64,000 bases of DNA, taken from assembly GCF_009931435.1 (NCBI RefSeq), contig NZ_CP043414.1. One strand, given 5' to 3'. The DNA comes from Escherichia coli. GTDB taxonomy: Bacteria > Pseudomonadota > Gammaproteobacteria > Enterobacterales > Enterobacteriaceae. The first letter of the stretch is position 1. Each line of letters begins with the position of its first letter. Positions 2,820 through 28,335 of the stretch are shown here, piece after piece. Under the pieces are notes generated by a model. The model was not told the DNA's origin, ran no database searches, and worked only from the letters and a program-made list of their open reading frames with translations. Position numbers and translations under genes: made by a program.

Positions 2820-2829
2820 TGCAGTCTCC

Positions 2830-3846: not shown

Positions 3847-3977
3847 GATATTGATATGAATGATATCGAAAGAGCAAAAGTATATACGTGAGGGGCAGCG
3901 AGCGCACCTGGATACTCTGTGGATATGAGAAAAGTCCGGCAGAACGGAGGGATTAGTGTCCCGCCGGAGAAAAGTGG

Positions 3978-4790
3978 TTAATCCTGCAACGCATAGGTTA
4001 CGGTGGTTACTACGCGTACCGTTTTATTAATCGCCGTAGGATCATCTTCATCACTGCCACTGGCGAAGATCTGGAACACGCCTTGTGAGGCATCGCTAAT
4101 TGACCCCACCTGGCTACCTGAGTCCGTTGCAAATTGTAATGCTGCGTTGCGTGCATCTTTGGTGGCGGCGGCAATCATCTCAGCGCGCAGTGCGCCAATA
4201 CCATTAAAGCGATAGGCGACTTTGCTCTCAGCGATAGCGCCCTCCGTAGCGACTTGCAGTTCGTTTAATTTCGCGACGACTTTTTCGACAGCAGCAACAT
4301 TATGGGTTTTTATCGTCACTGACCCGTCTGCGTTATAGCGTGGCATTGTGGGATCATCTTTCAGATAAAAGGAATCTGTTCGCTTGCTTGTCCATTGGCC
4401 CAGGGTTATCTCTTTCTCGTTAATCCCCTGAGCATTGAGTTCGGCAACAATTTTTTTCTGCGCGTCTTCCAGTTTCGGGAACAGTTCGCCGGGAATATTA
4501 CCCTTAAAGTTAATCGCAATTGTTAATTCTGCCGTATCTGCGCGAACTTCTTTTTCAGAAAGCCCACGCACATTTACATAACGGTTATTGGTTTTTAAAT
4601 GTTTAACACCATCGCCAACAAAATAACCACAGGCGCTAATCCCCAGTCCGAGGACGATAGCGGCAATTAAAGAGGGGGCCTTATTCACTGATGACTCCAT
4701 ATCAGATGCTAAATGAGCAAGGGAATGTAGTGGAGAGAGGGAGTGAAAGACAGTCCGATTCAGGAGTGTGGCCGACAGCATATCGGCCAC
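3978..4790 (-). CDS. SIMPL/DUF541-like putative lipoprotein (YggE-like); likely true start near 4701 (MESSVNK...)
   Basis: 270-aa ORF; hydrophobic leader with lipobox-like ISAC, then a fold pattern resembling the SIMPL family; no strong SD at either candidate start. Confidence 0.6.
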   Translation of the reverse strand: MADMLSATLLNRTVFHSLSPLHSLAHLASDMESSVNKAPSLIAAIVLGLGISACGYFVGDGVKHLKTNNRYVNVRGLSEKEVRADTAELTIAINFKGNIPGELFPKLEDAQKKIVAELNAQGINEKEITLGQWTSKRTDSFYLKDDPTMPRYNADGSVTIKTHNVAAVEKVVAKLNELQVATEGAIAESKVAYRFNGIGALRAEMIAAATKDARNAALQFATDSGSQVGSISDASQGVFQIFASGSDEDDPTAINKTVRVVTTVTYALQD

Positions 4791-4803
4791 ATTTTTGCAG
4801 GAT

Positions 4804-6660: not shown

Positions 6661-6820
6661 GTATTCTCCCAACTTAAGGTCACACCTGTCACAGGCGCAA
6701 TAGATGTGGTTATCGTAATGACCCAACCGGCACTTGTCAGCAGGAATTGCGGACTGTGCTGTAACAAAATCCACTCTCGTGTTAATTTTGTGAATAAATA
6801 TCATGACAGGAGTTAATCAA

Positions 6821-7372
6821 ATGGATGCACTCGAACTATTGATCAATCGCCGTAGCGCCTCCCGCCTGGCTGAACCTGCGCCAACGGGTGAACAACTGCA
6901 AAACATCCTGCGTGCGGGTATGCGTGCCCCGGACCATAAGTCCATGCAACCGTGGCATTTTTTTGTGATTGAAGGGGAAGGACGCGAGCGTTTCAGCGCA
7001 TTATTGGAACAGGGGGCGATTGCTGCCGGTAGTGATGACAAAGCTATCGACAAAGCGCGTAATGCGCCGTTCCGCGCACCGCTCATCATAACGGTGGTGG
7101 CAAAATGCGAAGAAAATCATAAAGTCCCGCGCTGGGAACAGGAAATGTCTGCGGGATGTGCGGTCATGGCGATGCAAATGGCAGCAGTTGCCCAGGGGTT
7201 TGGCGGTATCTGGCGCAGTGGCGCATTAACTGAAAGTCCGGTAGTGCGTGAAGCATTCGGTTGCCGTGAGCAGGATAAAATTGTCGGTTTTCTCTACCTT
7301 GGTACGCCGCAGTTGAAAGCATCTACGTCGATAAACGTCCCGGACCCGACGCCGTTTGTGACTTATTTCTGA
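6821..7372 (+). CDS. ydjA: Nitroreductase-family protein YdjA
   Basis: 183-aa product [16 protein letters not shown]...; divergent from sppA. Confidence 0.88.
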
Positions 7373-7488
7373 TAATTGTCGCGAAACTGTCTGGATTGTG
7401 AGCAAAGGCGCAGGAATTCAGACACTCTCACTTATCACTTCATGGAATGAGGGTTACCATACCCGGATTGCATTGACAGGAGATGTCC

Positions 7489-8532
7489 ATGAGCGAGAAC
7501 TCGATTCGTTTGACCCAATACAGCCACGGTGCAGGTTGCGGCTGTAAAATTTCCCCAAAAGTGTTGGAGACCATCCTGCACAGTGAGCAGGCGAAGTTTG
7601 TTGATCCGAATTTGCTTGTGGGTAATGAAACCCGCGACGATGCGGCGGTGTACGATCTGGGCAATGGCACCAGCGTTATCAGTACCACCGACTTCTTTAT
7701 GCCGATCGTTGATAATCCTTTCGATTTTGGCCGCATTGCGGCGACTAACGCCATCAGCGATATCTTCGCGATGGGTGGCAAACCGATTATGGCGATTGCG
7801 ATCCTCGGCTGGCCTATTAACAAACTTTCCCCTGAAATTGCCCGCGAAGTAACCGAAGGTGGACGCTATGCATGCCGTCAGGCGGGTATTGCGCTGGCTG
7901 GCGGTCACTCCATCGATGCGCCGGAGCCGATTTTTGGTCTGGCGGTAACGGGGATCGTACCGACCGAGCGGGTGAAGAAAAACAGTACTGCACAAGCCGG
8001 ATGCAAACTGTTCCTGACGAAACCGCTGGGAATTGGCGTTCTTACTACGGCTGAGAAAAAATCACTGCTGAAACCAGAACATCAGGGACTAGCGACGGAA
8101 GTGATGTGCCGGATGAATATTGCAGGCGCGTCCTTTGCCAACATCGAAGGCGTAAAAGCGATGACTGACGTGACTGGTTTTGGTCTGCTGGGGCATTTGA
8201 GCGAAATGTGTCAGGGTGCTGGTGTGCAGGCGCGAGTCGACTATGACGCGATCCCGAAACTGCCGGGGGTTGAAGAGTACATTAAGTTGGGCGCAGTGCC
8301 TGGCGGCACCGAACGTAACTTTGCCAGCTATGGGCATCTGATGGGTGAAATGCCGCGTGAAGTGCGCGATCTGCTGTGCGATCCGCAAACTTCTGGCGGT
8401 CTGCTGCTGGCGGTCATGCCGGAAGCAGAAAATGAGGTCAAAGCTACAGCCGCCGAGTTTGGCATTGAACTGACGGCGATTGGCGAACTGGTGCCAGCGC
8501 GCGGCGGTCGTGCCATGGTTGAGATCCGTTAA
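7489..8532 (+). CDS. selD: Selenide, water dikinase (selenophosphate synthetase)
   Basis: 347-aa product [23 protein letters not shown]... Confidence 0.95.
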
Positions 8533-8536
8533 TTCA

Positions 8537-10492
8537 ATGCGGTTGTTTATTGCCGAAAAACCGAGTCTGGCGCGCGCCATTGCTGATGTCCTGCCCAAAC
8601 CGCACCGGAAAGGCGATGGCTTTATCGAGTGCGGTAATGGCCAGGTGGTGACCTGGTGTATCGGTCACCTGCTTGAGCAGGCGCAGCCAGACGCCTACGA
8701 CAGTCGCTATGCGCGCTGGAACCTGGCCGATCTCCCCATTGTCCCGGAAAAGTGGCAATTACAGCCACGACCCTCCGTGACCAAACAACTTAATGTGATC
8801 AAACGCTTCCTGCATGAAGCCAGCGAAATCGTTCACGCCGGGGACCCGGATCGCGAAGGACAATTGCTGGTGGATGAAGTGCTGGACTACCTGCAACTGG
8901 CACCGGAAAAGCGCCAGCAGGTACAGCGTTGTTTGATAAACGACCTGAACCCGCAGGCGGTTGAGCGGGCGATCGATCGTCTTCGCTCCAATAGCGAGTT
9001 TGTACCACTGTGCGTTTCTGCGCTGGCGCGAGCACGAGCCGACTGGTTATACGGCATCAATATGACCCGCGCGTACACCATTCTCGGTCGTAATGCGGGT
9101 TATCAGGGCGTGCTTTCCGTGGGACGCGTGCAGACGCCCGTGCTCGGGCTGGTGGTGCGCCGCGATGAAGAAATTGAAAACTTCGTGGCTAAAGACTTCT
9201 TTGAAGTCAAAGCGCATATCGTGACACCTGCCGATGAGCGGTTTACCGCTATCTGGCAACCGAGCGAAGCGTGTGAACCGTACCAGGATGAAGAAGGGCG
9301 CTTGTTACATCGTCCGCTGGCGGAGCATGTAGTTAACCGCATTAGTGGTCAACCGGCTATTGTCACCAGCTATAACGATAAACGGGAATCAGAATCCGCG
9401 CCGCTGCCGTTTTCGCTTTCGGCGTTGCAGATTGAAGCGGCAAAACGCTTTGGTCTGAGCGCGCAGAATGTGCTTGATATTTGCCAGAAGCTGTACGAAA
9501 CGCACAAGCTAATCACTTATCCGCGTTCCGATTGTCGCTATTTGCCAGAAGAACATTTTGCCGGACGCCACGCGGTGATGAATGCTATCGGCGTCCATGC
9601 GCCGGATCTGTTGCCGCAACCAGTGGTAGATCCAGATATACGCAACCGCTGTTGGGATGACAAAAAGGTCGATGCGCACCACGCCATCATCCCGACCGCG
9701 AGGAGTTCTGCCATCAACCTGACGGAAAACGAGGCGAAGGTCTATAACCTGATTGCTCGTCAGTATTTGATGCAGTTCTGTCCGGACGCGGTGTTCCGCA
9801 AGTGTGTTATCGAACTGGAAATAGCCAAAGGCAAATTTGTCGCTAAAGCCCGTTTTCTAGCTGAAGCAGGCTGGCGCACGCTGTTAGGCAGCAAAGAGCG
9901 CGATGAAGAAAACGACGGCACGCCACTGCCTGTGGTGGCGAAAGGCGATGAGTTGCTGTGTGAAAAAGGTGAAGTGGTAGAGCGGCAAACCCAGCCGCCG
10001 CGCCATTTTACCGATGCAACACTGCTTTCGGCGATGACCGGGATCGCGCGCTTTGTGCAGGACAAAGATCTGAAAAAGATCCTTCGTGCCACCGATGGTC
10101 TGGGGACAGAAGCGACTCGCGCCGGGATTATTGAACTGCTGTTCAAGCGAGGCTTCCTGACCAAAAAAGGGCGCTATATCCACTCCACCGACGCCGGAAA
10201 AGCATTATTCCATTCGCTGCCAGAGATGGCGACGCGACCGGACATGACCGCGCACTGGGAATCGGTGCTGACGCAAATCAGCGAAAAGCAGTGTCGCTAT
10301 CAGGACTTTATGCAACCGTTGGTGGGGACGCTGTATCAGTTGATTGATCAGGCCAAACGTACGCCGGTGCGGCAGTTTCGCGGCATAGTGGCTCCAGATG
10401 GCGGAGAAGGAAATAAAAAGACTTCATCACGTAAGCGAGCAGCGAAAAAAAGCCCGCCATCAGCAGAGGCGGGCAGTGGAGTGATAATGTAA
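8537..10492 (+). CDS. topB: DNA topoisomerase III
   Basis: 651-aa product [19 protein letters not shown]... Confidence 0.95.
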
Positions 10493-10575: not shown

Positions 10576-11919
10576 TTAAATCACCCCCTGCGCCAGCATC
10601 GCATCGGCAACCTTCACAAAACCGGCAATGTTCGCGCCCTGCACGTAGTTGGTTTGCTCACCTTCACCACCATGCTCAACACAGGCATGGTGGATATCCA
10701 GCATGATGTGATGCAAACGTGCGTCAACTTTCTCGGCTTTCCAGCCCAGGCGCGCAGCGTTTTGCGCCATTTCCAGGCCGGATGTAGCTACGCCACCAGC
10801 ATTAGCCGCTTTACCCGGTGCAAACAGTACGCCTGCCTGCTGGAACAGTTCAGTCGCTTCGATGGTGGTCGGCATATTTGCCCCTTCGGCGACGGCTTTA
10901 ACGCCATTGGCGATAAGCTGATGCGCGGCGTCTACATCCAGTTCGTTCTGGGTGGCGCAAGGCAGGGCGATATCAACCGGTACAGACCACGGCTGTTGGC
11001 CTTCGAGATAGACCAGGCCAAATTCTTTGGCGTAATCTGCCACTCGACCATCGCGGCTGGCTTTGATTTCGATAAGACGTGCCAGTTTCTCTTTAGTGAA
11101 TCCGCTTTCATCAACGACAGTGCCACTGGAATCTGACGCAGTAATCACACGGGCACCAAATTCCATCGCTTTTTCGATAGCGTACTGAGCGACGTTGCCG
11201 GAGCCAGAAACGGAAACGCGCATCCCTTCAAAACCCATACCGTGGCGTTTTAGCATTGCTTCTGTGAAATAAACCAGACCGTAGCCGGTTGCTTCCGGGC
11301 GAATAAGACTGCCGCCAAAAGAAAGCCCCTTACCGGTGAAGACGCAGGCGGTATTGTTGGAGAGCTTTTTCATCATCCCCGCCATAAAGCCGACTTCACG
11401 ACCACCAACGCCGATATCACCTGCCGGAACGTCGGTATCCGCGCCCAGGTGGCGATACAGTTCAGTCATCAGGGCCTGGCAAAAACGCATCACTTCACCT
11501 TCGCTTTTTCCTTTCGGATCGAAATCGCTGCCACCTTTACCACCGCCCATCGGCAGGGTAGTCAGGGCATTTTTGAAGGTTTGCTCGAAGCCGAGAAATT
11601 TGAGAATGGAGAGGTTAACTGACGGATGGAAACGCATACCGCCTTTGTACGGGCCGATGGCGGAGCTGAACTGCACGCGCCATGCACGGTTGACCTGTAC
11701 CTGGTTGCGATCGTCAACCCATACCACGCGAAACTGGATCACGCGCTCCGGTTCAACCAGACGCTCCAGTAATGACATTTGGCGATATTTTGGATTTTGT
11801 TCAAGAAAAGGCCAGAGTGTGGTCATTACTTCACGAACGGCTTGCGCGAACTCGGTTTGATTCGGGTCGCGCTTTTGGACATGGTTGAGGAATGACTCCA
11901 GAGAATATGTCTGATCCAT
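10576..11919 (-). CDS. gdhA: NADP-specific glutamate dehydrogenase
   Basis: 447-aa product MDQTYSLESFLNHVQKRDP... Confidence 0.97.
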   Translation of the reverse strand: MDQTYSLESFLNHVQKRDPNQTEFAQAVREVMTTLWPFLEQNPKYRQMSLLERLVEPERVIQFRVVWVDDRNQVQVNRAWRVQFSSAIGPYKGGMRFHPSVNLSILKFLGFEQTFKNALTTLPMGGGKGGSDFDPKGKSEGEVMRFCQALMTELYRHLGADTDVPAGDIGVGGREVGFMAGMMKKLSNNTACVFTGKGLSFGGSLIRPEATGYGLVYFTEAMLKRHGMGFEGMRVSVSGSGNVAQYAIEKAMEFGARVITASDSSGTVVDESGFTKEKLARLIEIKASRDGRVADYAKEFGLVYLEGQQPWSVPVDIALPCATQNELDVDAAHQLIANGVKAVAEGANMPTTIEATELFQQAGVLFAPGKAANAGGVATSGLEMAQNAARLGWKAEKVDARLHHIMLDIHHACVEHGGEGEQTNYVQGANIAGFVKVADAMLAQGVI

Positions 11920-12154
11920 AGATATAAAACCCTTATATATTAATACGATTATGCTTATGTTGTTTATGTCATGTGCTTTTGCAGTTTTCGACTATACCAT
12001 CAAGAATGTGACGGTAAGCAAGAAAAAAATGACTCACGAAAGCAAATTAATAACGGGAGAAATCTCATAACCAAAAGCGATAACTCAGACGCTAAAGTTT
12101 TGCCGCCAGGCTACCGTTATCAGTAACAGAGACAAAAACGTTAAGGAGTTCCCT

Positions 12155-12427
12155 GTGAGTCGAGCATTGTTCGCCCTAGCATTGGCATTTCCATTCATTG
12201 CACTGGCTAACCCGCATTATCGTCCGGACGTGGAGGTAAACGTACCGCCTGAAGTATTCAGTTCAGGCGGGCAGTCAGCGCAGCCCTGTAATCAGTGCTG
12301 CGTCTATCAGGATCAAAACTATTCTGAAGGGGCGGTAATTAAAGCCGAAGGAATACTGCTGCAATGCCAGCGGGATGACAAAACTCTTGGCACTAATCCG
12401 CTGGTCTGGCGGCGCGTAAAGCCATAA
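12155..12427 (+). CDS. ynjH: DUF1496 small protein YnjH
   Basis: 90-aa product with signal-like N-terminus; GTG start after AAGGAG. Confidence 0.8.
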   Translation: MSRALFALALAFPFIALANPHYRPDVEVNVPPEVFSSGGQSAQPCNQCCVYQDQNYSEGAVIKAEGILLQCQRDDKTLGTNPLVWRRVKP

Positions 12428-12800
12428 ACGCCTTTAATAGTGGAATGTCAGCAGGGGCCAGCGGATATTGCAGCGCCTCTTCAGGTGAGCACCAGACCAG
12501 CGCCTGATGTTCATGTGCCTGTAACGTCCCGTGGAAGTGGGGTATGTGCCAGGCATGAAGATGGATAATCCGCCCCGAAACTTCTCGCTGATGGCTGGCA
12601 ACATACTCACCCACAGTTGCTTCGATGCCCAATTCTTCGCGTAACTCACGCACCAGCGCCTGCCGCTGGCTTTCATCCGGTTCGACTTTACCACCAGCAA
12701 ATTCCCATAATCCCGCTTGATCGCTATGCGTAGGGCGTTGCGCGATTAAAATTTTGTCATCCTGTTCGATGATGGCGGCAACAACATCAATCATTTTCAT
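12393..12800 (-). CDS. nudG: Nudix hydrolase (CTP pyrophosphohydrolase)
   Basis: 135-aa product with Nudix box GGKVEPDESQRQALVRELREELG; 3' end overlaps ynjH. Confidence 0.9.
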   Translation of the reverse strand: MKMIDVVAAIIEQDDKILIAQRPTHSDQAGLWEFAGGKVEPDESQRQALVRELREELGIEATVGEYVASHQREVSGRIIHLHAWHIPHFHGTLQAHEHQALVWCSPEEALQYPLAPADIPLLKAFMALRAARPAD

Positions 12801-12886
12801 AAATTACACACGGTCGAATACAGGAAAAATGCCATAATATCCGCAGTGTTGCTCAATCAGAAAGGCTTTATATTTAAGGAGTGCCT

Positions 12887-13507
12887 GTGTTAGACCGCCA
12901 TCTTCATCCCCGAATTAAACCTTTGTTGCATCAGTGTGTGAAGGTGCTGGATAAACCCGGCATTACGCCAGATGGTTTAACATTAGTGGGATTTGCCATC
13001 GGCGTGCTGGCACTGCCGTTTCTGGCGCTGGGCTGGTATCTGGCGGCGCTAATCGTCATTTTGTTGAACAGGCTGCTTGATGGTCTGGACGGCGCGTTGG
13101 CGCGGCGAAGAGGACTTACCGACGCGGGTGGCTTTCTCGATATTTCTCTCGATTTTCTTTTTTACGCACTGGTGCCTTTTGGGTTTATCCTCGCCGCACC
13201 GGAGCAAAACGCGCTGGCAGGCGGCTGGCTGCTGTTTGCGTTTATCGGCACGGGCAGCAGTTTTCTCGCTTTTGCTGCGCTGGCGGCGAAACATCAGATT
13301 GATAATCCCGGTTATGCGCATAAATCGTTTTATTATCTGGGCGGGTTAACCGAAGGCAGCGAGACGATTTTGCTGTTTGTTCTGAGTTGCCTCTTGCCAG
13401 CTTATTTTCCGTGGTTTGCGTGGGTATTTGGTGCGTTGTGCTGGATGACGACCTTTACGCGGGTGTGGAGTGGGTATCTGACGCTGAAGTCGCTCCAGCG
13501 CCAGTAA
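12887..13507 (+). CDS. ynjF: CDP-alcohol phosphatidyltransferase family membrane protein
   Basis: About 206-aa hydrophobic product, DGxxAR motif; GTG start 6 nt after AAGGAG. Confidence 0.85.
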   Translation: MLDRHLHPRIKPLLHQCVKVLDKPGITPDGLTLVGFAIGVLALPFLALGWYLAALIVILLNRLLDGLDGALARRRGLTDAGGFLDISLDFLFYALVPFGFILAAPEQNALAGGWLLFAFIGTGSSFLAFAALAAKHQIDNPGYAHKSFYYLGGLTEGSETILLFVLSCLLPAYFPWFAWVFGALCWMTTFTRVWSGYLTLKSLQRQ

Positions 13508-13515
13508 TTGCAATG

Positions 13516-14823
13516 TTATTTGCTGCTGTCCGGGCCGCGCTCACCGGTTGCTACGGGATTTTTCGGATCGCTGCTCCATTCGTACCAGCCGCCGTCGTAA
13601 ACGGAGACGTTATTCCAGCCCATTGCTCGTGCGTACATAAAGGTTTCGGACGCGCGCCAGCCGGTGCCGCAGTAGAATGAAACTTGCTGATCTGGTTTGA
13701 TATTCCATGCTTTCCACATAGCGGCAATATCATCGGCGCTACGCATGGTGCCATCCGGGTTATGGAAATCCTCCATATGCGTCGAGTCGCTACCAGCGTG
13801 TCCCCAACGGGCTCCGGCTATTTCACCTTTTGGCTTAATATAGCTGTAACCACTGGTCGTACCGATAAATTCTGGCCACGAACGAATGCTCACCAGCGAT
13901 GCATCCTGGCGATGCAGCAGCCCACGGGCCTGTTCCATATCAAGCATCAACTGCGGTTGCGCCGGGATCTTCACGCCGAAATCCGGTTCAGCTTTCACTT
14001 TCGGTGGCGTTCCGCGCTCAACAGGCAGTCCCGCGTCGGACCAGGTTTGCCAGCCGCCGTCCAGCAGGCGCACATCTTTCACCCCTGCATAGAGCATAAT
14101 CTGTGCTACACGCGCTGCTGCGTATACATCACGACCATATAGAATCACCGTGGTGTCATGACGAATGCCATGCTTTGCCAGCATCGCTTTCAGTTGTTCA
14201 TCAGAGACTTTATTCCACAGCGGTTCGCTTTCCACTTCATTGGTATCGATGTAATCCGCGCCGGGAATATGGCTGATAAGGTAAAGCTTAGGAGCGCCCC
14301 AGGCCGCTTCAATGACTTTCCAGTCACCGGCAGGTTTCGCCGTAACCTCTTTACCCTGTTGCAGGTCATGCAGCCATTGCGGATAAACCAGCTGCTCAAA
14401 GTGCGGCAGTTTTTGCAGACGGGAAGGTTCGCTTAGCGCGTCACTCAGGATGGAGATATGCGTAAAACCTGCTTTTTGCAGTCGCGTTTTGACGGCGTCG
14501 ACATCTTTGTCATTACCGTACAGCGCCACCGGAGCGTCGGTTTTCAGGTTATGTTGCTTGATCCACGCGTTGAGCTGTTCGGTGCTCATTTTGTCGAGCC
14601 AGCTAGCAGAGAGGTTTAAGGCGGCAGGTTCATGACCGGAAGGGCCATTTAAGGTTTGTGGCCAGCCGTTATAAAACGCGCTGGGGCGAGTATCTATCGC
14701 TTTGCCATTTTGTTGTTGAAGCTGGTCAAGAGTAAGAGGCTTCGCCAGTTCAGCGGCCCACGAAGAAGCGCAAGCCAGCCCTAAAGCCATTGCCAGCGCG
14801 GTCATTTGAGAAACACGTTTCAT
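13516..14823 (-). CDS. ynjE: Thiosulfate sulfurtransferase (rhodanese-domain protein)
   Basis: 435-aa product from MKRVSQMTALAMALGL... (signal peptide). Confidence 0.9.
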   Translation of the reverse strand: MKRVSQMTALAMALGLACASSWAAELAKPLTLDQLQQQNGKAIDTRPSAFYNGWPQTLNGPSGHEPAALNLSASWLDKMSTEQLNAWIKQHNLKTDAPVALYGNDKDVDAVKTRLQKAGFTHISILSDALSEPSRLQKLPHFEQLVYPQWLHDLQQGKEVTAKPAGDWKVIEAAWGAPKLYLISHIPGADYIDTNEVESEPLWNKVSDEQLKAMLAKHGIRHDTTVILYGRDVYAAARVAQIMLYAGVKDVRLLDGGWQTWSDAGLPVERGTPPKVKAEPDFGVKIPAQPQLMLDMEQARGLLHRQDASLVSIRSWPEFIGTTSGYSYIKPKGEIAGARWGHAGSDSTHMEDFHNPDGTMRSADDIAAMWKAWNIKPDQQVSFYCGTGWRASETFMYARAMGWNNVSVYDGGWYEWSSDPKNPVATGERGPDSSK

Positions 14824-14889
14824 CGAAAATCCCGACATTGTAGTTTTGAGTGCGCCATTCTGAACTGACACATTGGGAAAAACTTTGCG

Positions 14890-15543
14890 TTATCGCAGTT
14901 TGTTGTAATTTTCTGACCACTGCGCCATATCCAGAACAGAACTATCAGCAGGAACATCCTGGAGATCGTGCGTTACCTGAACGACGGGGATCGCCAGTTC
15001 GCGAACTTCGCTGAACACCCACTGGCGAAAATTATCGCGCAGAGCCACATCAAGACGGCTGAACGGCTCATCCAGGAGTAACGCTTTTGGCTGGGCGAGA
15101 AGGGCGCGTAGCAGAGCAACGCGCGCTCGCTGACCGCCAGACAAAGTGGCAGGATCCTGATGGAAAGCTCCGTCAAGGCCTGAACGCTCAAGTGCATCAT
15201 TCACGGCATTACGTCGGGCATTCCCCTTAAGTGTCTCCGGTAGCGCCAGCAGTAAATTTTGCCCGACGCTGAACTGGTCAAATAACAGTGCATCCTGGAA
15301 AAGAATGCCAATCTGACGCTGTGCGGTGGGTAGCATGTCAATCCGTTGCTCATTGAGCCATAGCTCACCTGCACAAGAAAACTGTCCGGCCAGCGCACCA
15401 ATCATCCATGAAAACAGTGTAGATTTTCCACAGCCAGACGGCCCCATTAACGTGACAATGTCACCTTTATCCACCGTAAAGTTAACGTTTGTCAGCAAGC
15501 GGCTTTCTGGTAAACGTAGCGAAACATTTTTCACGCAGAGCAT
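14890..15543 (-). CDS. ynjD: ABC transporter ATP-binding protein
   Basis: 217-aa product with Walker A GPSGCGKST; start overlaps ynjC stop (TAATG). Confidence 0.9.
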   Translation of the reverse strand: MLCVKNVSLRLPESRLLTNVNFTVDKGDIVTLMGPSGCGKSTLFSWMIGALAGQFSCAGELWLNEQRIDMLPTAQRQIGILFQDALLFDQFSVGQNLLLALPETLKGNARRNAVNDALERSGLDGAFHQDPATLSGGQRARVALLRALLAQPKALLLDEPFSRLDVALRDNFRQWVFSEVRELAIPVVQVTHDLQDVPADSSVLDMAQWSENYNKLR

Positions 15544-17078
15544 TAGCGGAGTCCTTGTCTGACATAACCTACCCATTTTGCGACTAACGCGGTCAGGGCA
15601 AAAATAATAAGCGGCAACAGTAGTTGCCATAAAGCCTGGGCGGCGAGAATGCCGTTGCTGCCGCCGCTGCTTAATGCCACCGCTTCAGTGGTGAGTGTCG
15701 GAAAACGCCCCGCGCCCAGCCACAGCGTCGGCATATACTGCGCAATACTGACTGAAAATCCCACCGCGAAGGTAATCAGCGCAGGGCGCAACATGAGTGG
15801 GCATTTCACGTAAAAGAAGATTTTGGCCCGCGACCAGCCCAGTGTTTGCGCAATCAAAATTAACCGTGAATCAATGCGCTGCCAGGCGGGTTGCAGGATA
15901 AACAGCATCCACGGCATTACCCACAGCAGATGCCCCCAGACCACCGCTGTCCAGTTCCCATCTATGTTCAGCCATAGCGCCAGCATGTACTGGCCCGCCA
16001 CCAGCGGCAGAGCGGGTAATAAAATGGGCAACCAGAGCCACAACTGGCGACGCTTTGCCCCCCATTCCAGCCACAGCAGTAACAGGACCAAAGCGATAAA
16101 CGTCGCCACCAGCCCCATTGTCAGGCTGTTGATGAGCGCTTCACTATTGATCGTCGACTGATCCGCGAGGATCGCCAGCAGAGCCACACAGAGCACACCG
16201 GTTAAGGGTAAAAAAATCGCCAGTGTATTACCGGGTAATAAAGGAGTGGCGTGCTTACGAACGCCATCTTCCTGGGGGATCGTGCGTCGCCAGGCGCGCC
16301 ATAACAGATAACCAAGCAAAACGTAGGCGGCGAGTAACAGCATCAGCAGCAGACTGGCAAGCGCGCCTTTTGTCTGTTGGTCAATGCCACCCTGGGTTAG
16401 CCACTGCCAGCTAATTACCGCCAGCGTCGGTGGATTACCCGGCCCGAGAATAATTGCCACATCCACGACCGACAACGACCATGCCACAATAGCCAGCATC
16501 GCCATTGCCAGTGCAGGCGCGACGGAGGGCAACAACAACCAGTTCAGACATTGCCAGCGGCTGTAGCCCAGCGAATCCAGTACAATAACCTGCTGCAACA
16601 GCCGTTTCTCGCTCAATACTGCCGCTAAGATCCACAGCAGAAATGCGCTTTCTTTCACCGCCAGGGTAAGGCCCAGCCCAATACCCAATTTATCCATCGG
16701 CGGAGTGAGAAAAGGAAAAACCTGATAAACCAGGCCACCTTCAGCAAACAGCAACAGGGCGCTGGTGGCAAAAGCCACATGGGGAATGGCGAGCAGCCAC
16801 GGCAGACGGGCGCACATACGCTGCCATTTCGGCCCAGGCCACAGCGCCATAACTACCAGCAGGGCAATCGTCAATGCGCCGAGCGCCGCGATGGTTGTTG
16901 ACACCAGCGTCGCCAGTAATGCCTGCGGTAGCTGCGGATCGGCAAATAACGCCTGCCAGTGTGCCAACGACAAAGCAGGCGATATCAGCGTGAACGCCGC
17001 CGGGATCAGCGGTGCATAAATCACCGCCACCATCGCCCACAGCAACAAGATTAATGCGTACCGTAACGGTGTAGCCAT
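15543..17078 (-). CDS. ynjC: ABC transporter permease
   Basis: About 511-aa polytopic membrane protein. Confidence 0.88.
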   Translation of the reverse strand: MATPLRYALILLLWAMVAVIYAPLIPAAFTLISPALSLAHWQALFADPQLPQALLATLVSTTIAALGALTIALLVVMALWPGPKWQRMCARLPWLLAIPHVAFATSALLLFAEGGLVYQVFPFLTPPMDKLGIGLGLTLAVKESAFLLWILAAVLSEKRLLQQVIVLDSLGYSRWQCLNWLLLPSVAPALAMAMLAIVAWSLSVVDVAIILGPGNPPTLAVISWQWLTQGGIDQQTKGALASLLLMLLLAAYVLLGYLLWRAWRRTIPQEDGVRKHATPLLPGNTLAIFLPLTGVLCVALLAILADQSTINSEALINSLTMGLVATFIALVLLLLWLEWGAKRRQLWLWLPILLPALPLVAGQYMLALWLNIDGNWTAVVWGHLLWVMPWMLFILQPAWQRIDSRLILIAQTLGWSRAKIFFYVKCPLMLRPALITFAVGFSVSIAQYMPTLWLGAGRFPTLTTEAVALSSGGSNGILAAQALWQLLLPLIIFALTALVAKWVGYVRQGLR

Positions 17079-18217
17079 TCTTGTTCCAGCGCATTTACCC
17101 AACCTGCGTGCGGTTCAGCCAGTACCGGCGGCAGATCCTGCGGCATTCTTGATTGCAATATTTCGCGCTGCCCGTCAGGCAGTTTTTGTGGATCGAGAAC
17201 CGATGGATCGCCCCAGACAGCAGGGTCTGCTTTACGTAGCTGTGCATCAGGTGAGAGCAGGAAATTGGCAACCACCTTCGCCGCAGCACTGGCATTCGCG
17301 TTGGCAGGAACGGTGACGAAATGCACGTTGCCAATCATCCCCTCGCGAAAGCCAAAACTGTAACTGCTTGCCGGCAAATCGCCACTGGCGATTTTTTGCT
17401 GGGCATGTGCAGGATTAAAGGTCAGCGACAGGCGCAATGTGCCAGTTTTCAGCAGAGCATCCATCCGCGCGGGCGAAGGTGGGAAATCCTTTCCTTCGCG
17501 CCATAGATACGGATGCAGCGCATCAAGATATTGCCACAAGGGCGCAGTGATACGGGCGAAAGTCGCATCGTTCGGCGCTTCTTTTAATGCTGCGGGATCT
17601 GGCGTCAGCATAATCAGTAACTGTTCAAGAAATGCGGTGCCAGTAAAGTCTGGCGGGCGCGGATAGGTAACCGTGCCAGGATTGGCTTTAGCGAATTCCA
17701 GTAAGGCTTGCGGTGTTTGTGGTGGCAGTGGCGTAACATCGCGGCGGGCGATAAACGTCAGTTGTGCGCCGCCCCACGGCGATTCTGCGCCTTCGACAGG
17801 TACAGAAAAATCTTCCCGTACCGGCAGTTGTGTATCGACATAACGCCAGTTTGGCAGAGTCTCAGCCCAGCCGGTTTGCAGTAAATTGGCCTCTTTTAAG
17901 GTGCGGAAGTTTTCGCCGTTCACCCAGAGCAGATCCACCGAACCGCCTGTCTCGCGCCCGGCTGCGGCTTCGGTCTGAATGCGCTTCACCGCGTCTGCGG
18001 CATCCGCCAGGCGGACAATCTTCAGGTTTATATCATAATGGGTTTTCATCTCGCCGCTAACCCAGTCGAGATAGCGGTTAATTGCGGTATCGCCGCCCCA
18101 GGCGTTAAACCAGACGGTTTGCCCTTTGGCCTCATTTTTAACTTCCTGCCAGTCACTGGCATGTGTTGCCAGAGAAAACAGCGATAACAATCCCAGCAAC
18201 CACCCACAATGGCGCAT
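17051..18217 (-). CDS. ynjB: ABC transporter periplasmic substrate-binding protein
   Basis: 388-aa product with signal peptide; overlaps ynjC start. Confidence 0.88.
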   Translation of the reverse strand: MRHCGWLLGLLSLFSLATHASDWQEVKNEAKGQTVWFNAWGGDTAINRYLDWVSGEMKTHYDINLKIVRLADAADAVKRIQTEAAAGRETGGSVDLLWVNGENFRTLKEANLLQTGWAETLPNWRYVDTQLPVREDFSVPVEGAESPWGGAQLTFIARRDVTPLPPQTPQALLEFAKANPGTVTYPRPPDFTGTAFLEQLLIMLTPDPAALKEAPNDATFARITAPLWQYLDALHPYLWREGKDFPPSPARMDALLKTGTLRLSLTFNPAHAQQKIASGDLPASSYSFGFREGMIGNVHFVTVPANANASAAAKVVANFLLSPDAQLRKADPAVWGDPSVLDPQKLPDGQREILQSRMPQDLPPVLAEPHAGWVNALEQEWLHRYGTH

Positions 18218-18226
18218 CATCTCTCC

Positions 18227-18775
18227 TTAAGAACGTTTTTCAGGAATACGGCACAGCCCCTGAGCGGGAATGTCCATGGCAGAATTAAAACGGGCTGACA
18301 GATTTTGCAGGCCGATCAATGCCGTCAGTTCGGTGAGCGCCTGGGCGTCAAAATGCGTAGCCAGTCGGGTACGCAGGGCTGCATCGACTGTTGGCGGCGT
18401 TACGCTTGCGGCTTCGGCGTACTCCAGCGCCAGCCGTTCTTCATCGCTAAAGAGCGGGCTTTGCCGCCAGTCAGCCACTGCCAGCAGTTTATCGGTGCTG
18501 CCAGTGCGCTCGGCGACTTTCATACTGGTGATATCCACGCAAAACTCACACAGGCACATTTGCGCAATGCGCGCGCTGACAAGCGATCGCACTACCGGAT
18601 CGAGCGGTGAGCGTTTACGCTCCAGCCAACCGACAAACATCGACACCAGATAAAAGATAAACGGGATCCGTCCCCACCAGCGAATTGGACTTAGCACCTC
18701 GCCGTAATGGCGACGATGCAGCCACGCCTGCGGACGTAAACTTAAAGGAATTTTGCTAAGCGGTGGTAAACCCAT
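18227..18775 (-). CDS. ynjA: Carboxymuconolactone decarboxylase (AhpD-like) family protein
   Basis: 182-aa product; start overlaps ydjZ stop. Confidence 0.85.
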   Translation of the reverse strand: MGLPPLSKIPLSLRPQAWLHRRHYGEVLSPIRWWGRIPFIFYLVSMFVGWLERKRSPLDPVVRSLVSARIAQMCLCEFCVDITSMKVAERTGSTDKLLAVADWRQSPLFSDEERLALEYAEAASVTPPTVDAALRTRLATHFDAQALTELTALIGLQNLSARFNSAMDIPAQGLCRIPEKRS

Positions 18776-19482
18776 CAGGCATTCCTCTTCTGGCGTTCAA
18801 GCCATATTTTTTTCGCCATAAAAATCACCACGGTCAGGGCAAACAGAATAAACAGTCCGGTGACAAACCAGAAGGTACCGCCCGTTAACATACTGCCCGC
18901 CCAGGAATAAACAATAGTCGCCGGTAACTGACCAAGCCCGGTGGCGATAAAAAACGAGCGAAAACGTATTGACGTCAAACCGGCAGCATAGCTGATTGGA
19001 TCGAAAGGGACAAAAGGCAATAACCGGCATACCAGGATAGTGTGTTTGCCGTAGCGAGTGAAAAAGCCGTCCATACTGTCAAGCACGGTTTTACCGGTTA
19101 ATTTTTCCACCACTTCGCGGCCCATCACTCTGGCAATAAAAAAGCATAGCGCCGCGCCCGCCATAGAACTGGTCCACGACAGCAAGCCACCCCAGAACGC
19201 ACCGAACAGCGAGGCATTGGCAAAGGTGATCAAAAATGCAGGCAGCGGTGCAGCAATGGCCTGTAAAATCATCAACATGAACGAGACAACTGCTGCCAGT
19301 GCGCCGTAAGACTGAATAAAGCGTTCTATACCCTGTTGGTCCACGGCGGCAAACGCCGCAACGCTGCGATTGATAAACTGATGGACGCCGGGAAGCAGTG
19401 CCCATGCCAGCAGCATAGCGAACAACAGGATGATGAGGGTTATACGGTAGTACCAGATTTTACGCGATTGCATCTTCATCAT
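18775..19482 (-). CDS. ydjZ: TVP38/TMEM64 (DedA-like) inner membrane protein
   Basis: 235-aa hydrophobic product. Confidence 0.85.
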   Translation of the reverse strand: MMKMQSRKIWYYRITLIILLFAMLLAWALLPGVHQFINRSVAAFAAVDQQGIERFIQSYGALAAVVSFMLMILQAIAAPLPAFLITFANASLFGAFWGGLLSWTSSMAGAALCFFIARVMGREVVEKLTGKTVLDSMDGFFTRYGKHTILVCRLLPFVPFDPISYAAGLTSIRFRSFFIATGLGQLPATIVYSWAGSMLTGGTFWFVTGLFILFALTVVIFMAKKIWLERQKRNA

Positions 19483-19496
19483 CCTTTATCGTGGCT

Positions 19497-20174
19497 TTAT
19501 TCGGTGATTTTAAAGGTAACCGTAGCCAGCGTGTTATCTGCCGGGAGAACCGAGGCATTGCCTTTGAATTGCACTTCACCACGTTTTTCCACCGCACCAT
19601 AAGTGTATGTTGCATTGCTGACGATGCCGACCGGGCAGCTATCCAGACATACCAGGCAGCCCGTTTTCTTCTCTTCTGCGGCGGCTAAATTACCGCCAAA
19701 GCGCATGTCCAGTTTTTTACCGTTATTGTCGACAATCACCTCATCGAATGAATACGCTTTTGCTGCCCCTTGCCAGTTGACCGAAATATCCAGTTTGCTG
19801 CCCGCTACATGAGTCGTTTCTTTATTCTCCATGGTCATGTTTTCGCCCGGGATACCACCGGCTTGTTTCAGTGCTTCATAAAATGCTTTCGGGGTCGCAT
19901 AACCCATAAACAGCGATTTATGTCCGTTGGAGCCATCTTTAAACACTATGCCGTGTCGAGTGTCGTCTGTCAGGAAACGGCCATTAATTTGTACCAGCAT
20001 GGTGACCGTATGGTTATTGTTATCGACACGCAGTGGTTGGCTGTCTGAAAGCCCGTCGTATTCCACTTTTGCTGCCGCATTCTCTTTTTGATCGCAGCCA
20101 CTAAGCCCGGCAACGGCCAGTAAACACAGTGCAGCCAGTCCTTTTTTCCATGACGCTGAATAATGTTGCAACAT
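19497..20174 (-). CDS. ydjY: Putative lipoprotein YdjY
   Basis: 225-aa product MLQHYSASWKKGLAALCLLAVAGLSGC (lipobox); AAGGA RBS inside ydjX 3' end. Confidence 0.82.
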   Translation of the reverse strand: MLQHYSASWKKGLAALCLLAVAGLSGCDQKENAAAKVEYDGLSDSQPLRVDNNNHTVTMLVQINGRFLTDDTRHGIVFKDGSNGHKSLFMGYATPKAFYEALKQAGGIPGENMTMENKETTHVAGSKLDISVNWQGAAKAYSFDEVIVDNNGKKLDMRFGGNLAAAEEKKTGCLVCLDSCPVGIVSNATYTYGAVEKRGEVQFKGNASVLPADNTLATVTFKITE

Positions 20175-20178
20175 CGTT

Positions 20179-20889
20179 CTATCCTTCATTTTTGGGGTGA
20201 GTAAGTGGGCTGCGGCGCGAAGCAGACAGATCCACGTGTTTGTGTCGGGCGTAGAGTTTGGCAAGCTGGACGAGAATAAACAGTGCCAGGCCCGCCAGAC
20301 AGAGTTGTAAAATAAAGCGCAGCGTAATGCCTTCACTGGCGAGATCGCTGGCCATCACGGTATAAATAACGATACCGGGCAGGGTAGTGAGTGCCGAAAT
20401 AAAGGTATAAGGCCAGAAGGCGATAGTGGTTAATCCGTAGGCGTAATTTTGAATATTGTAAGGAAACAGCGGGATTAAGCGGGTAAGAATTAAAAAATCG
20501 ATACCGTTATGTGCAATGCCTTTTTCAATGGCCTGGAAGGTATGGCTGTGACCAACGTATTTCAGCAATAAATCGCGCCCCAAAAAGCGTGCCAACAGGA
20601 ATGAACTCGAGGAGGCCAGCGTGGCGGCAATTAATGATAGTAGTGTCCCTAAGATCGGGCCAAAAACTATGCCTCCAGCGATCACCAGTATGCTTCCTGG
20701 TAACAGAAAGAGGGTGGCAATGATGAATAACACAATATAAAGGCAATAACCGAACAATCCGCTCTGGCGAATGAGAGTTTGTAAGTGGGGTAAATCGGTG
20801 AGCAGATCGAATAAACCGCAAGCGTGGATAGCGTAAATGACCAGCGCAAAAATAAAACAGGCAAAAAGAAATTTACGCTCAGCGTTCAT
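20179..20889 (-). CDS. ydjX: TVP38/TMEM64 (DedA-like) inner membrane protein
   Basis: 236-aa product from MNAERKFLFACFIF... Confidence 0.85.
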   Translation of the reverse strand: MNAERKFLFACFIFALVIYAIHACGLFDLLTDLPHLQTLIRQSGLFGYCLYIVLFIIATLFLLPGSILVIAGGIVFGPILGTLLSLIAATLASSSSFLLARFLGRDLLLKYVGHSHTFQAIEKGIAHNGIDFLILTRLIPLFPYNIQNYAYGLTTIAFWPYTFISALTTLPGIVIYTVMASDLASEGITLRFILQLCLAGLALFILVQLAKLYARHKHVDLSASRRSPLTHPKNEG

Positions 20890-21020
20890 TGTGGAGTTTC
20901 CTATATCAAACTTGATAATAGAGAAGTGGTCAGACAACTAAAAACGCAGTGACGGTATAACAAAGGACGGCAGGCAACAAATCATTACTGACAGTTTGTT
21001 GATTTTTCTCAAGGTTAATT

Positions 21021-21045
21021 CTCCTGACTCCGTTTGAGTCAGGAG
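21021..21045. other. Perfect 10-bp inverted repeat (ctcctgactc cgttt gagtcaggag) just past the xthA stop; possible terminator hairpin
   Basis: Read from sequence; no clear U-tract on either strand. Confidence 0.4.
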
Positions 21046-21055
21046 AGCAGCTAAA

Positions 21056-21862
21056 TTAGCGGCGGAAGGTCGCCCAGACGGGGGCGTGATCGGACGGTTT
21101 TTCCATGCTGCGAATTTCATAGTCGATGCCGGTTTCTACGCAACATTCTGCCAGCGGTTGGCTGGCGAGAAGCAGGTCGATGCGCAGACCACGGTTATCG
21201 TCAAAACCTTTTGAGCGGTAATCAAACCATGAGAAACGATCTGCTGTTTGCGGATTCGCATGGCGGAAGGTATCGACCAACCCCCAGCTCATCAGTCTCT
21301 CCATCCATTCGCGTTCCTCCGGAAGGAAAGAACATTTTCCGGTACGCAGCCAGCGCTTACGGTTCTCTTCGCCAATGCCAATATCCAGGTCGGTAGGACT
21401 GATATTCATATCGCCCATAATCAGCACCGGATTTTCACGCTTGAGTTCGGTTTCCAAATAATTTTGCAGATTCTGATAAAACTGCGCCTTCGCCGGGAAT
21501 TTTATCGGATGGTCGCGGCTTTCACCCTGCGGGAAGTAACCGTTGATCACGGTGACATTGCCCAGCGGCGAGGGGATTTCCGCCATAATAATTCGCCGTT
21601 GTGCCTCTTCGCCGTCGTCAGGGAAGCCGCGACGCACAGCAATCGGCGTCTCTTTGGTCAACAATGCCACGCCGTAATGGCCTTTCTGCCCGTGATAAAA
21701 CACGTTGTAGCCGAGCTTTGCCACCTCTTCGAGCGGAAACATATCGTCATGAACTTTTGTCTCCTGCAGGCCAATCACATCCGGCTGGTGCTTTTCGACA
21801 ATGGCTTCAAGCTGGTGAGGTCTGGCGCGCAGGCCGTTGATATTAAAAGAGACAAATTTCAT
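21056..21862 (-). CDS. xthA: Exodeoxyribonuclease III
   Basis: 268-aa product [21 protein letters not shown]... Confidence 0.95.
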
Positions 21863-22129
21863 AGTCGCTGCCATTTATTCAGATAAAGAGTGCGTGGATG
21901 GTAGCAGAATTTCGCTTTGCTTACCGCCTGTTGTTAAGTGATTTGATCGATGGTTGTTAATGATGTCAACGATGGCGCAAAAATTGCCCGCTTTTGGTGC
22001 GCGCTGCGTCAGAATGGCGCAGTAATTTCCAGTAAATTTCGTCAATGATCACAATTCCAGAATTATATTTTACTTTTGCATAATATTGCGTTTTTTATTC
22101 TTTCTATTCACCATCATCGCAAACATATT

Positions 22130-22216
22130 CACTTTTTATGCACTTTAAATGCATAGCGTACAGTTATAACTCCTTGATTATCAGTTAATCGCCCCCTTTT
22201 ATGCACTTTTATCACT
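22130..22216 (+). promoter_or_regulatory. Putative ArgR operator region (two repeats of ttatgcactttwa) upstream of astC
   Basis: Repeated TGCA..TGCA palindromic motifs seen; ast operon is known to be ArgR-dependent. Confidence 0.3.
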
Positions 22217-22218
22217 GG

Positions 22219-22235
22219 CTGGCACGAACCCTGCA
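22219..22235 (+). promoter_or_regulatory. Sigma-54-type promoter (-24 GG / -12 GC) for astCADBE
   Basis: ctGGcacgaaccctGCa matches TGGCAC-N5-TTGCA spacing; about 70 bp upstream of the astC ATG. Confidence 0.55.
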
Positions 22236-22271
22236 ATCTACATTTACAGCGCAAACATTACTTATTATTAA

Positions 22272-28335
<6,064 letters not shown>

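Follow-up and report, generated by a model that had tools for sequence, protein, structure and literature searches.

The closest described counterpart of the locus treated here is the Escherichia coli K-12 cluster ydjXYZ-ynjABCD (b1750–b1756) with the adjacent gene ynjE (b1757). The locus itself lies in a 64,000-nucleotide stretch of E. coli DNA (contig NZ_CP043414.1, assembly GCF_009931435.1; hereafter the window), in which the seven genes from ydjX to ynjD occupy positions 14890–20889. The locus, its operon structure and its control by FNR are already published. In K-12, chromatin immunoprecipitation and RNA-seq identified ydjXYZ-ynjABCD as one operon that FNR activates directly, with its site at −60.5; ynjE is likewise directly activated, as a unit of its own, with a site at −41.5 (Myers et al. 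2013, PMC3688515). Overproduction of BaeR is reported to induce ynjABCD mildly (PMC2731931).

Other described systems resemble the locus in part. As in a Pcs/ChoXWV-type route, a binding-protein-dependent importer (YnjBCD) is genomically coupled to an enzyme of the cytidine diphosphate (CDP)-alcohol phosphatidyltransferase family (YnjF, encoded next to ynjE). In that route, an ATP-binding cassette (ABC) importer brings in a head-group alcohol, and the phosphatidyltransferase condenses it with CDP-diacylglycerol. The differences are that YnjF has no sequence evidence as a phosphatidylcholine synthase and that the module has extra DedA, rhodanese and thiol-redox parts. The genes of the chalcogen uptake systems YedE/YedF and TsuA/TsuB lie near selD and near TusA-like or rhodanese sulfur carriers, as those of the module do in some lineages. 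Their membrane proteins belong to the YeeE/YedE families, which are unrelated to DedA and ABC proteins, and none of them is encoded in the window cluster. In Campylobacter, Facklamia, Thermincola and Syntrophia, ArsS-type 'arsenosugar biosynthesis' sets are found in one operon with YdjY, the DedA pair, a rhodanese and redox partners. Unlike these sets, the window cluster does not encode a radical SAM enzyme, a glycosyltransferase, a kinase or a nucleosidase and would be at most a salvage or handling version.

The window locus was shown to be the orthologue of K-12 ydjXYZ-ynjABCD and ynjE; it is intact, belongs to the core genome and has kept the FNR box. Together with ynjF, we tentatively read it as one anaerobic envelope module that combines import, the handling of phospholipid head groups and periplasmic thiol, sulfane-sulfur or selenium chemistry. 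We consider this reading possible rather than probable. The nine adjacent E. coli genes are a tractable model-organism copy of an ancient module that Firmicutes, Campylobacterota and Desulfobacterota have conserved. The locus bears on what bacterial COG0398 DedA proteins transport and on whether bacteria have a dedicated route of selenium acquisition.

Orthology and conservation

Gene order in the window is the same as in K-12, and both have xthA upstream and ynjF, nudG, ynjH and gdhA downstream. K-12 has ynjI between gdhA and topB, whereas the window lacks it there. All eight genes from ydjX to ynjE have the same lengths as in K-12, and protein identities were 93.4–98.9%, with YnjE at 98.9%. 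Nucleotide divergence from K-12 was ~4–8%, and synonymous divergence (dS) was ~0.1–0.3. The ratio of nonsynonymous to synonymous divergence (dN/dS) of the eight genes was 0.03–0.22 (ydjZ: 0.034). No functional difference from K-12 was found within the cluster itself.

A megablast search with window positions 14500–22500 gave a match for 5424 of the 5426 complete E. coli genomes. Identity was 90–95% for most of them and 98.7% for the best, which indicates that the window comes from a divergent Escherichia lineage. The RefSeq annotations of this best match and of K-12 have identical gene names and lengths. The locus from ydjX to ynjE is intact, belongs to the core genome and is under purifying selection. 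Pseudogenisation and recent horizontal transfer were rejected on the basis of the intact frames, the dN/dS range and the core-genome position.

A first-pass annotation, made from the sequence alone, had described seven tightly packed co-directional genes with overlapping or near-abutting junctions, followed on the same strand by the gene of a periplasmic three-domain rhodanese. Its coordinates for the seven genes (14890–20889) were exact; the strand, which it had left unstated, is minus. All gene identifications agreed with the RefSeq annotation, Pfam and NCBIfam. The junctions range from a 28-nt overlap (ynjB-ynjC) to a 14-nt gap (ydjY-ydjZ). The remaining ones are gaps of 4 nt (ydjX-ydjY) and 9 nt (ynjA-ynjB) and overlaps of 1 nt (ydjZ-ynjA, as ATGA, and ynjC-ynjD), and ynjE follows ynjD after 66 nt. 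Its view of the locus as conserved rather than novel also holds.

Regulation

The FNR-box-like site upstream of ydjX, TTGAGAAAAATCAA, is identical in K-12, and its position fits the published −60.5 site. Since this K-12 box is conserved, ydjX to ynjD is an anaerobically induced unit. The seven genes form one operon, and ynjE is co-regulated from its own promoter and not co-transcribed. The mapping of the operon by RNA-seq, which the first-pass annotation had proposed as a check, is thus available for K-12: it joins ydjXYZ-ynjABCD, but it places ynjE in a unit of its own.

Upstream of ynjE, no FNR box was found within two mismatches of the consensus. As this region is 99% identical to K-12 and yet contains no such box, the published ynjE site probably resembles the consensus only weakly. 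The spacers xthA-ydjX (20890–21055) and ynjD-ynjE (14824–14889) were 98–99% identical to K-12, compared with a synonymous divergence of ~0.2 in the adjacent genes. This identity points to conserved regulatory sequence beyond the single FNR box.

Directly after the xthA stop codon, there is a perfect 10-bp hairpin, CTCCTGACTC-AAACG-GAGTCAGGAG (21021–21045, minus strand), without a T-run. The K-12 hairpin differs at four positions, with pairing kept by G-U wobbles. It is probably a 3′ structure of xthA that insulates ydjX.

Relatives of the module in other phyla

One genome per species was scanned for YdjY (100,044 species). This gave 95 confirmed stretches, and the best 80 of the 95 are the loci analysed here (individual loci are given as L numbers). 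Neighbours were counted by clustering the open reading frames (ORFs) of these loci, with flanks of ±10 kb. The 74 non-enterobacterial loci were grouped into 38 genus-level groups.

YdjY homologues are rare. They are ~50% identical across phyla, have signal peptides or lipoboxes and share the invariant motifs TRH, GxNMT, FGGN and TGCLxCLDSCPVGIxSN. Among enterobacteria, they were found in Escherichia, one Citrobacter and [Enterobacter] lignolyticus; among anaerobic Firmicutes, in Finegoldia, Peptostreptococcus, Gemella, Facklamia, Catonella and Clostridium. Sulfurospirillum, Campylobacter, Desulfobacterota and Syntrophia also have them.

In 75 of the 80 loci, YdjY has a DedA gene nearby; the median distance between the two is 22 nt, and 91% share the strand. 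In the non-enterobacterial set, a DedA gene was found within ±10 kb of YdjY in 69 of the 74 loci and 33 of the 38 genus-level groups. DedA proteins of the YdjZ type in Firmicutes, Sulfurospirillum and Campylobacter were 45–61% identical to window YdjZ (most of them 50–60%), and YdjZ is the most conserved member of the module. Desulfobacterota have a single DedA protein of the YdjX type, with an identity of ~30–36%. Homologues of YnjB, YnjC and YnjD were found near YdjY in 7–8 genus-level groups, rhodaneses in at least eight (including an exported single-domain form identified by eye) and YnjF-like CDP-alcohol phosphatidyltransferases in five.

The YnjB family is much larger (>3900 clusters). 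All three YnjB-seeded contexts that were examined (L090, L091 and L092) had partners of the same kinds. L091 and L092 have the order VTT, (rhodanese), VTT, CCG, CDP-OH_P_transf, YnjB, YnjC, YnjC, YnjD and lack YdjY; their YdjZ proteins are 59–61% identical and their YnjE-like rhodanese is 41% identical to the E. coli proteins. In Caloranaerobacter (L090), a YedE-like, TusA, YedE-like set stands directly 5′ of YnjBCD, followed by a GT2 glycosyltransferase, a CofC/DUF2064 protein and an APH-fold kinase, with a nucleoside hydrolase alongside. In the YdjY locus L059, which shows the synteny best, the order is YdjY, small transmembrane protein, YdjX-type DedA, YdjZ-type DedA, CCG protein, YnjF-like, YnjB, YnjC, YnjC, YnjD. 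Given these shared neighbours, one conserved supra-operon holds counterparts of all E. coli genes from ydjX to ynjF.

The Firmicute operons L059, L054, L091 and L092 contain the same families as E. coli in nearly the same order, at identities of 54–61% for YdjZ, 29–36% for YnjB, 32–37% for YnjD and up to 41% for the rhodanese. They differ in several respects. The phosphatidyltransferase gene is in line, whereas E. coli ynjF is convergent. The permease is split into two genes, whereas E. coli ynjC is fused. A small membrane protein of 125–150 amino acids (aa) is absent from E. coli, and YdjY is optional. The place of the AhpD-like YnjA of E. coli is taken by an HdrD-like CCG protein. YnjA, which was seen in enterobacteria only, is likely a non-orthologous replacement of the thiol-redox partner at the position of the CCG protein. 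As far as the searchable literature shows, this cross-phylum synteny and the ArsS and selD associations described below are new for the operon.

In Desulfobacterota loci (L018, L045, L051, L078 and others), a Fer4+CCG domain, which is heterodisulfide-reductase-like, is fused to the N-terminus of DedA, giving proteins of ~570–650 aa. COG0398 DedA proteins have been linked to aerobic metabolism (PMC10127716). The fusions listed here come from strict anaerobes, and FNR activates the two E. coli genes.

Protein families and export

Both DedA proteins matched Pfam VTT_dom (PF09335) well above the cut-off of 33.9 bits (YdjX: 90.8; YdjZ: 87.2). YdjX has been assigned to the TMEM41/Tvp38 type (COG0398) of DedA-superfamily proteins (bioRxiv 2020.12.18.423352). 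A description of the COG0398 subfamily, which names YdjZ alone of the E. coli pair, predicts that these proteins are phospholipid scramblases and not flippases of undecaprenyl phosphate (UndP) (PMC10127716). An identity as the UndP flippase UptA (COG0586 DedA) was rejected for YdjX and YdjZ, which scored 25.1 and 38.2 bits against an equivalog cut-off of 250. Neither protein complements BC202, a yqjA yghB mutant (PMC3836016).

YdjY matched the NCBIfam ydjY_domain model alone (139.5 bits; cut-off 50). Its invariant motif TGCLxCLDSCPVG contains three Cys. The lipobox is LSG-C with Asp at +2 (LAVAGLSG-C-D), and the established E. coli lipoprotein-sorting rules predict that YdjY stays in the inner membrane, on its periplasmic side. 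A cleavable signal peptide can be read from the sequence of both YnjB and YnjE, which gives three exported products with the lipoprotein YdjY.

YnjA is predicted to be cytoplasmic. It matched Pfam CMD (36.9 bits; cut-off 23), its CxxC is CEFC within CLCEFC, and its relatives in the PDB are AhpD-like proteins. The best NCBIfam match was a YciW-related (seleno)protein model, below cut-off, and the peroxidase-related model TIGR01926 was not reached (22 vs 81.8).

In Pfam, YnjB is SBP_bac_8, YnjC is BPD_transp_1 and YnjD is ABC_tran (104 bits); YnjB also matched NCBIfam PRK11622 at 556 bits. YnjD has the Walker A motif GPSGCGKST, the signature LSGGQ and the Walker B motif LLLDEP. By these signatures, YnjBCD is a binding-protein-dependent ABC importer with an exported binding protein, a BPD_transp_1 permease and a motif-complete ATPase.

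YnjE has Pfam Rhodanese in three stretches, an active-site loop CGTGWRAS and matches to the solved structures 3ipo and 2wlr (E = 9e-288). The next solved relatives are 'Sulfurtransferase' chains of 441–460 residues (6h98 and 6ktv, E ~1e-88), which we take to be the anaerobic ergothioneine synthase EanB. If so, the YnjE scaffold would, by analogy, be capable of forming C–S bonds on small molecules.

The substrate of the transporter

No published substrate for any of the genes was found in the searchable literature, in line with the first-pass annotation. YnjC has had no direct substrate studies, and little is known on ynjC (PMC9184624, 2022). For the periplasmic YnjE, no thiosulfate:glutathione sulfurtransferase activity was apparent, activity with 3-mercaptopyruvate was reported as poor, and the physiological substrate was called unclear (PMC10215317, 2023).

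Database names suggest that YnjBCD imports thiamine or sulfate/thiosulfate, that YnjE is a thiosulfate sulfurtransferase supplying sulfur (e.g. for molybdopterin) and that ydjXYZ and ynjA are passengers. RefSeq indeed names YnjE 'thiosulfate sulfurtransferase' or 'molybdopterin synthase sulfurtransferase', and the annotated thiamine ABC transporter complex is said to carry sulfate, thiosulfate or thiamine (PMC9184624). Moreover, YnjD resembles ThiQ and CysA, YnjC weakly resembles CysT and ModB, and TbpA is among the structural neighbours of YnjB. However, all equivalog scores were far under cut-off. A thiamine importer ThiBPQ was rejected, with ThiQ at 133 bits against 245 and no thiamine pyrophosphate (TPP) riboswitch, and so was a sulfate/thiosulfate importer CysPUWA, with CysT at 23.9 against 246.1 and CysA at 112.8 against 502. 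An Rfam search of window positions 12000–23000 (E up to 1) found no riboswitch and only a chance match to tmRNA, and none for TPP, S-adenosylmethionine, cobalamin or molybdenum cofactor (Moco) reached the Rfam gathering score in 14 related Firmicute loci. The reported YnjE activities do not favour these names either, nor does the location of YnjE in the periplasm, as Moco is made in the cytoplasm. The DedA, redox and YnjBCD genes stay linked from phylum to phylum and are therefore not passengers. We regard the functions implied by the database names as highly improbable.

For the equivalog models of molybdate, polyamine and phosphonate importers, YnjBCD also scored far below the cut-offs; two stretches of YnjC matched PhnU2, likewise far below cut-off. 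The first-pass annotation had proposed structure prediction of YnjB to find the ligand class. The AlphaFold2 model was good (mean predicted local distance difference test score, pLDDT, 86), but its neighbours were too diverse to give a class. The Foldseek neighbours were PhnS, PotD, FbpA, MctA and TbpA, at template modelling (TM) scores of ~0.6 and identities of ≤18%, and the neighbours bind ligands as different as polyamine, Fe3+, thiamine, 2-aminoethylphosphonate, metal-citrate and sugar. By sequence, YnjB had no match in the PDB. The invariant YnjB residues are rich in Trp, Phe, Tyr, Asp, Glu and Asn, a composition compatible with a cationic or polyhydroxy ligand.

Selenium and arsenic associations

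Clusters of the YdjY or YnjB type also contain CCG, C_GCAxxG_C_C, CcdA/TlpA and YedE-TusA genes. In ten loci, selD or yedF was found within 10 kb of ydjY. All seven carriers of selD have it on the same strand, 0.5–7 kb from YdjY: Syntrophaceae, Desulfobacterales, Desulfocapsaceae, a delta-proteobacterial genome bin and three Facklamia species. The other three loci, with selD carriers not counted, have yedF. The Facklamia order is YdjY, rhodanese, selenocysteine tRNA (tRNA-Sec), one gene, SelD, YedF, SelB, SelA. In Escherichia, selD is 5 kb from ynjE in the window and 6 kb in K-12. We estimated a chance proximity of selD of ~0.005 per genome, which by our own arithmetic gives P ~2e-6 for 5 of 38 groups and P ~0.02 if only two lineages are counted as independent. 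The co-location with selD is suggestive but no proof; it is strong in Facklamia and several Desulfobacterota.

One explanation of this co-location is selenium acquisition. YnjE and YdjY would capture perselenide or selenotrisulfide, the DedA pair and/or YnjBCD would import it, and YnjA would reduce it and feed SelD, with the anaerobic selenoprotein formate dehydrogenases as the end use. Selenoprotein formate dehydrogenases are synthesised under conditions of FNR activation, so that activation of the operon coincides with their synthesis. The explanation also gains from a review that knows of no high-affinity selenium transporter (PMC9312934) and from the link of a DedA protein to selenite resistance (Ledgham 2005, as cited in PMC3836016). 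On the other hand, most YdjY loci have no selenium gene within 10 kb. The clusters of Facklamia and B. benzoevorans hold a PrdB-like ORF that stops at the expected selenocysteine, and such a selenoprotein ORF nearby could alone explain the adjacent selenocysteine machinery. The conserved genes for a CDP-alcohol phosphatidyltransferase, a kinase and a glycosyltransferase would be left unexplained, and the literature pairing ynjE or ydjZ with selenium contained nothing relevant by title or abstract. We consider selenium acquisition by this route unlikely.

Further selenium-related features were seen in individual loci. The PrdB-like ORFs (cluster c27, in L070, L073, L076, L080, L085 and L086) are ~155 aa long, match the first 146 of 238 profile positions and end in '...LLSPG'; judged by this, they are probably selenoproteins in which UGA was called as a stop. 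Facklamia lactis has a compact 'selenium island' (L070, 10001–18300) with tRNA-Sec at 11659–11751. This tRNA gene is preceded there by ArsS, CcdA, a TlpA-like protein, two DedA proteins, a nucleoside hydrolase-like protein, a small transmembrane protein, YdjY and a rhodanese, and it is followed by one gene and then SelD, YedF, SelB and SelA. A SECIS_4 element was found in a Tissierellia locus (L014, 3699–3736) ~6 kb upstream of YdjY, at 40.6 bits against a gathering score of 38.

Arsenic-related families were above cut-off in some YdjY-DedA operons, namely ArsS (TIGR04167, 336.6 vs 300) and the 'arsenosugar biosynthesis' glycosyltransferases TIGR04282 and TIGR04283. The operons are those of Campylobacter, Facklamia, Thermincola, Sulfurospirillum and Syntrophia. 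TIGR04282 is often fused to a ChoK/MtnK-fold kinase there, and C_GCAxxG_C_C, flippase-like, CcdA/TlpA and PrdB-like (probable selenoprotein) genes are also present. In the window between 12.9 and 21.9 kb, no ORF matched ArsS, TIGR04282 or TIGR04283; these genes were seen only in the related loci from other phyla.

The occurrence of these families would suit the handling of metalloids, with the module as the envelope part of an arsenosugar/arsenolipid system and the three-Cys site of YdjY binding As(III). Three clustered cysteines are a classical As(III) site. The nucleoside hydrolase, the MtnK-fold kinase and the CDP-alcohol phosphatidyltransferase would be in keeping with a pathway leading to an arsenosugar phospholipid. 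Even so, no arsM, arsR, arsB/acr3 or arsC was recognised among the inspected neighbours, most of the hosts are anaerobes with a commensal or fermentative way of life, and neither ArsS nor glycosyltransferase genes are found in the E. coli locus. To our knowledge, an arsenic function has been shown only for a cyanobacterial ArsS. A metalloid function of the module is very unlikely in our judgement.

Possible lipid link and proposed mechanism

The gene ynjF, which is absent from the first-pass annotation, is tied to the module by comparative evidence. YnjF matched Pfam CDP-OH_P_transf at 44.5 bits, and its homologues lie inside DedA-CCG-YnjBCD operons (L034, L037, L054, L059, L072, L091 and L092). 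Hence, ynjF is a probable functional partner of the module. Related clusters also contain genes for a ChoK/MtnK-fold kinase, a CofC-like nucleotidyltransferase, a GT2 glycosyltransferase and flippase-like proteins. The ynjC mutation P213S gave a strong fitness advantage under colistin (PMC9184624).

The anaerobic envelope module proposed above could work as follows. YnjBCD would import a small polar compound, possibly cationic or alcohol-bearing, and YnjF would link it, or a related alcohol, to a phospholipid. The COG0398/TMEM41-type proteins YdjX and YdjZ would then move the resulting lipid between the leaflets. On the periplasmic face, the anchored YdjY, with its three invariant Cys, and YnjE would carry out thiol or sulfane-sulfur/selenium transfer. 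Cytoplasmic YnjA would supply or resolve disulfide chemistry by its CxxC, a role that may fall to the HdrD-like CCG protein, often fused to DedA, in other phyla. Each single step is held with less confidence than the general picture. The first-pass annotation had suggested a single periplasm-facing sulfur or redox module. The three exported products and the recurrence of the gene set as operons in Firmicutes and other anaerobes speak for this, but ynjE is a separate FNR-dependent unit in K-12, and the support for sulfur is no better than that for selenium or a lipid head group.

Several points weigh against the proposed module. No experiment ties any of its genes to lipid or selenium. The published role of YnjE in cytoplasmic Moco sulfuration, which is reflected in the RefSeq product name, misfits a periplasmic lipid model. 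YdjY has no informative structural relative, and the YnjB fold does not narrow the ligand class, as its structural neighbours span many ligands. The gene ynjF is on the opposite strand and is only 23–31% identical to its in-operon homologues. The larger clusters contain kinase, nucleotidyltransferase, glycosyltransferase and ArsS genes that are absent from the window. In the window, ynjF, nudG, ynjH, gdhA and topB separate selD from ynjE; the proximity of selD in Escherichia could be due to chance, because these five intervening genes are unrelated. Finally, a 'make or take' exclusivity of ArsS and YnjBCD, which never co-occurred in the sampled loci, had no statistical support: with ArsS in 8 and YnjB in 7 of 38 groups, the overlap was 0 against 1.5 expected, and this exclusion is not significant (hypergeometric p ~0.2, our own arithmetic).

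A more specific reading is that ydjX to ynjF is a salvage or handling version, without the biosynthesis, of a widespread uncharacterised pathway of anaerobes, in which a chalcogen or metalloid head group is carried on a phospholipid flipped by DedA proteins. Elsewhere, this wider pathway would comprise an ArsS-type radical SAM enzyme, a nucleosidase, an MtnK-fold kinase, a nucleotidyltransferase, a GT2 glycosyltransferase and a CDP-alcohol phosphatidyltransferase, beside selD, yedF and tRNA-Sec. As part of the same reading, it would build or take up a 5-deoxyribosyl-type head group of this kind. We consider the whole quite unlikely. If true, it would give bacterial COG0398/TMEM41-type DedA proteins their first physiological substrate, and a new selenium-utilisation trait or a supply route of selenium for anaerobic selenoenzymes would be possible.

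Feature positions and minor observations

The positions of the genes and regulatory features are listed in Table 1. The RefSeq starts, which are predicted, were adopted for ydjY, ynjD and ynjE, as they give proper signal peptides and tight junctions. The longest mechanical ORFs exceed the annotation in these three genes: 279 vs 225 aa for ydjY (19497–20336), 246 vs 217 aa for ynjD (14890–15630) and 451 vs 435 aa for ynjE.

Table 1. Genes and regulatory features in and around the ydjX-ynjE locus, by window position
Feature	Position	Strand	Description
ydjX	20889..20179	-	DedA-superfamily inner-membrane protein, VTT domain, 236 aa
ydjY	20174..19497	-	Exported lipoprotein, 225 aa
ydjZ	19482..18775	-	Second DedA/VTT protein, 235 aa
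ynjA	18775..18227	-	AhpD-like (carboxymuconolactone decarboxylase family), CLCEFC motif, 182 aa
ynjB	18217..17051	-	Substrate-binding protein, signal peptide, 388 aa
ynjC	17078..15543	-	Fused double-domain ABC permease, 511 aa
ynjD	15543..14890	-	ABC ATPase, 217 aa
ynjE	14823..13516	-	Three-domain rhodanese, 435 aa
ynjF	12887..13507	+	CDP-alcohol phosphatidyltransferase family membrane protein, convergent with ynjE
selD	7483-8532		Selenophosphate synthetase gene
topB	8480-10492		
FNR-box-like site TTGAGAAAAATCAA	21012..20999	-	xthA-ydjX spacer; one mismatch to TTGAT-N4-ATCAA
-10-like hexamer TATACC	20959..20954	-	Upstream of ydjX; our own reading, as is the transcription start
Sigma-70-like promoter TTCAGA, 16-nt spacer, TACAAT	14837..14864	-	ynjD-ynjE spacer; from a consensus scan

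The GC content is uneven within the operon, with 47–48.5% in ydjX and ydjY and 55–56% in ynjA, ynjB and ynjC, against 50% in the whole window. Moreover, the dS of ynjD is unusually low (0.06). Together, the uneven GC content and the low dS may reflect a mosaic history or recombination.

In Finegoldia and Peptoniphilaceae (L019 and L022, ~2800–8800), a putative corrinoid methyltransferase set lies directly upstream of YdjY-DedA on the same strand. By eye, it consists of a CobW GTPase, two MtaA/uroporphyrinogen-decarboxylase-like methyltransferases, a corrinoid protein and a RamA-like activator.

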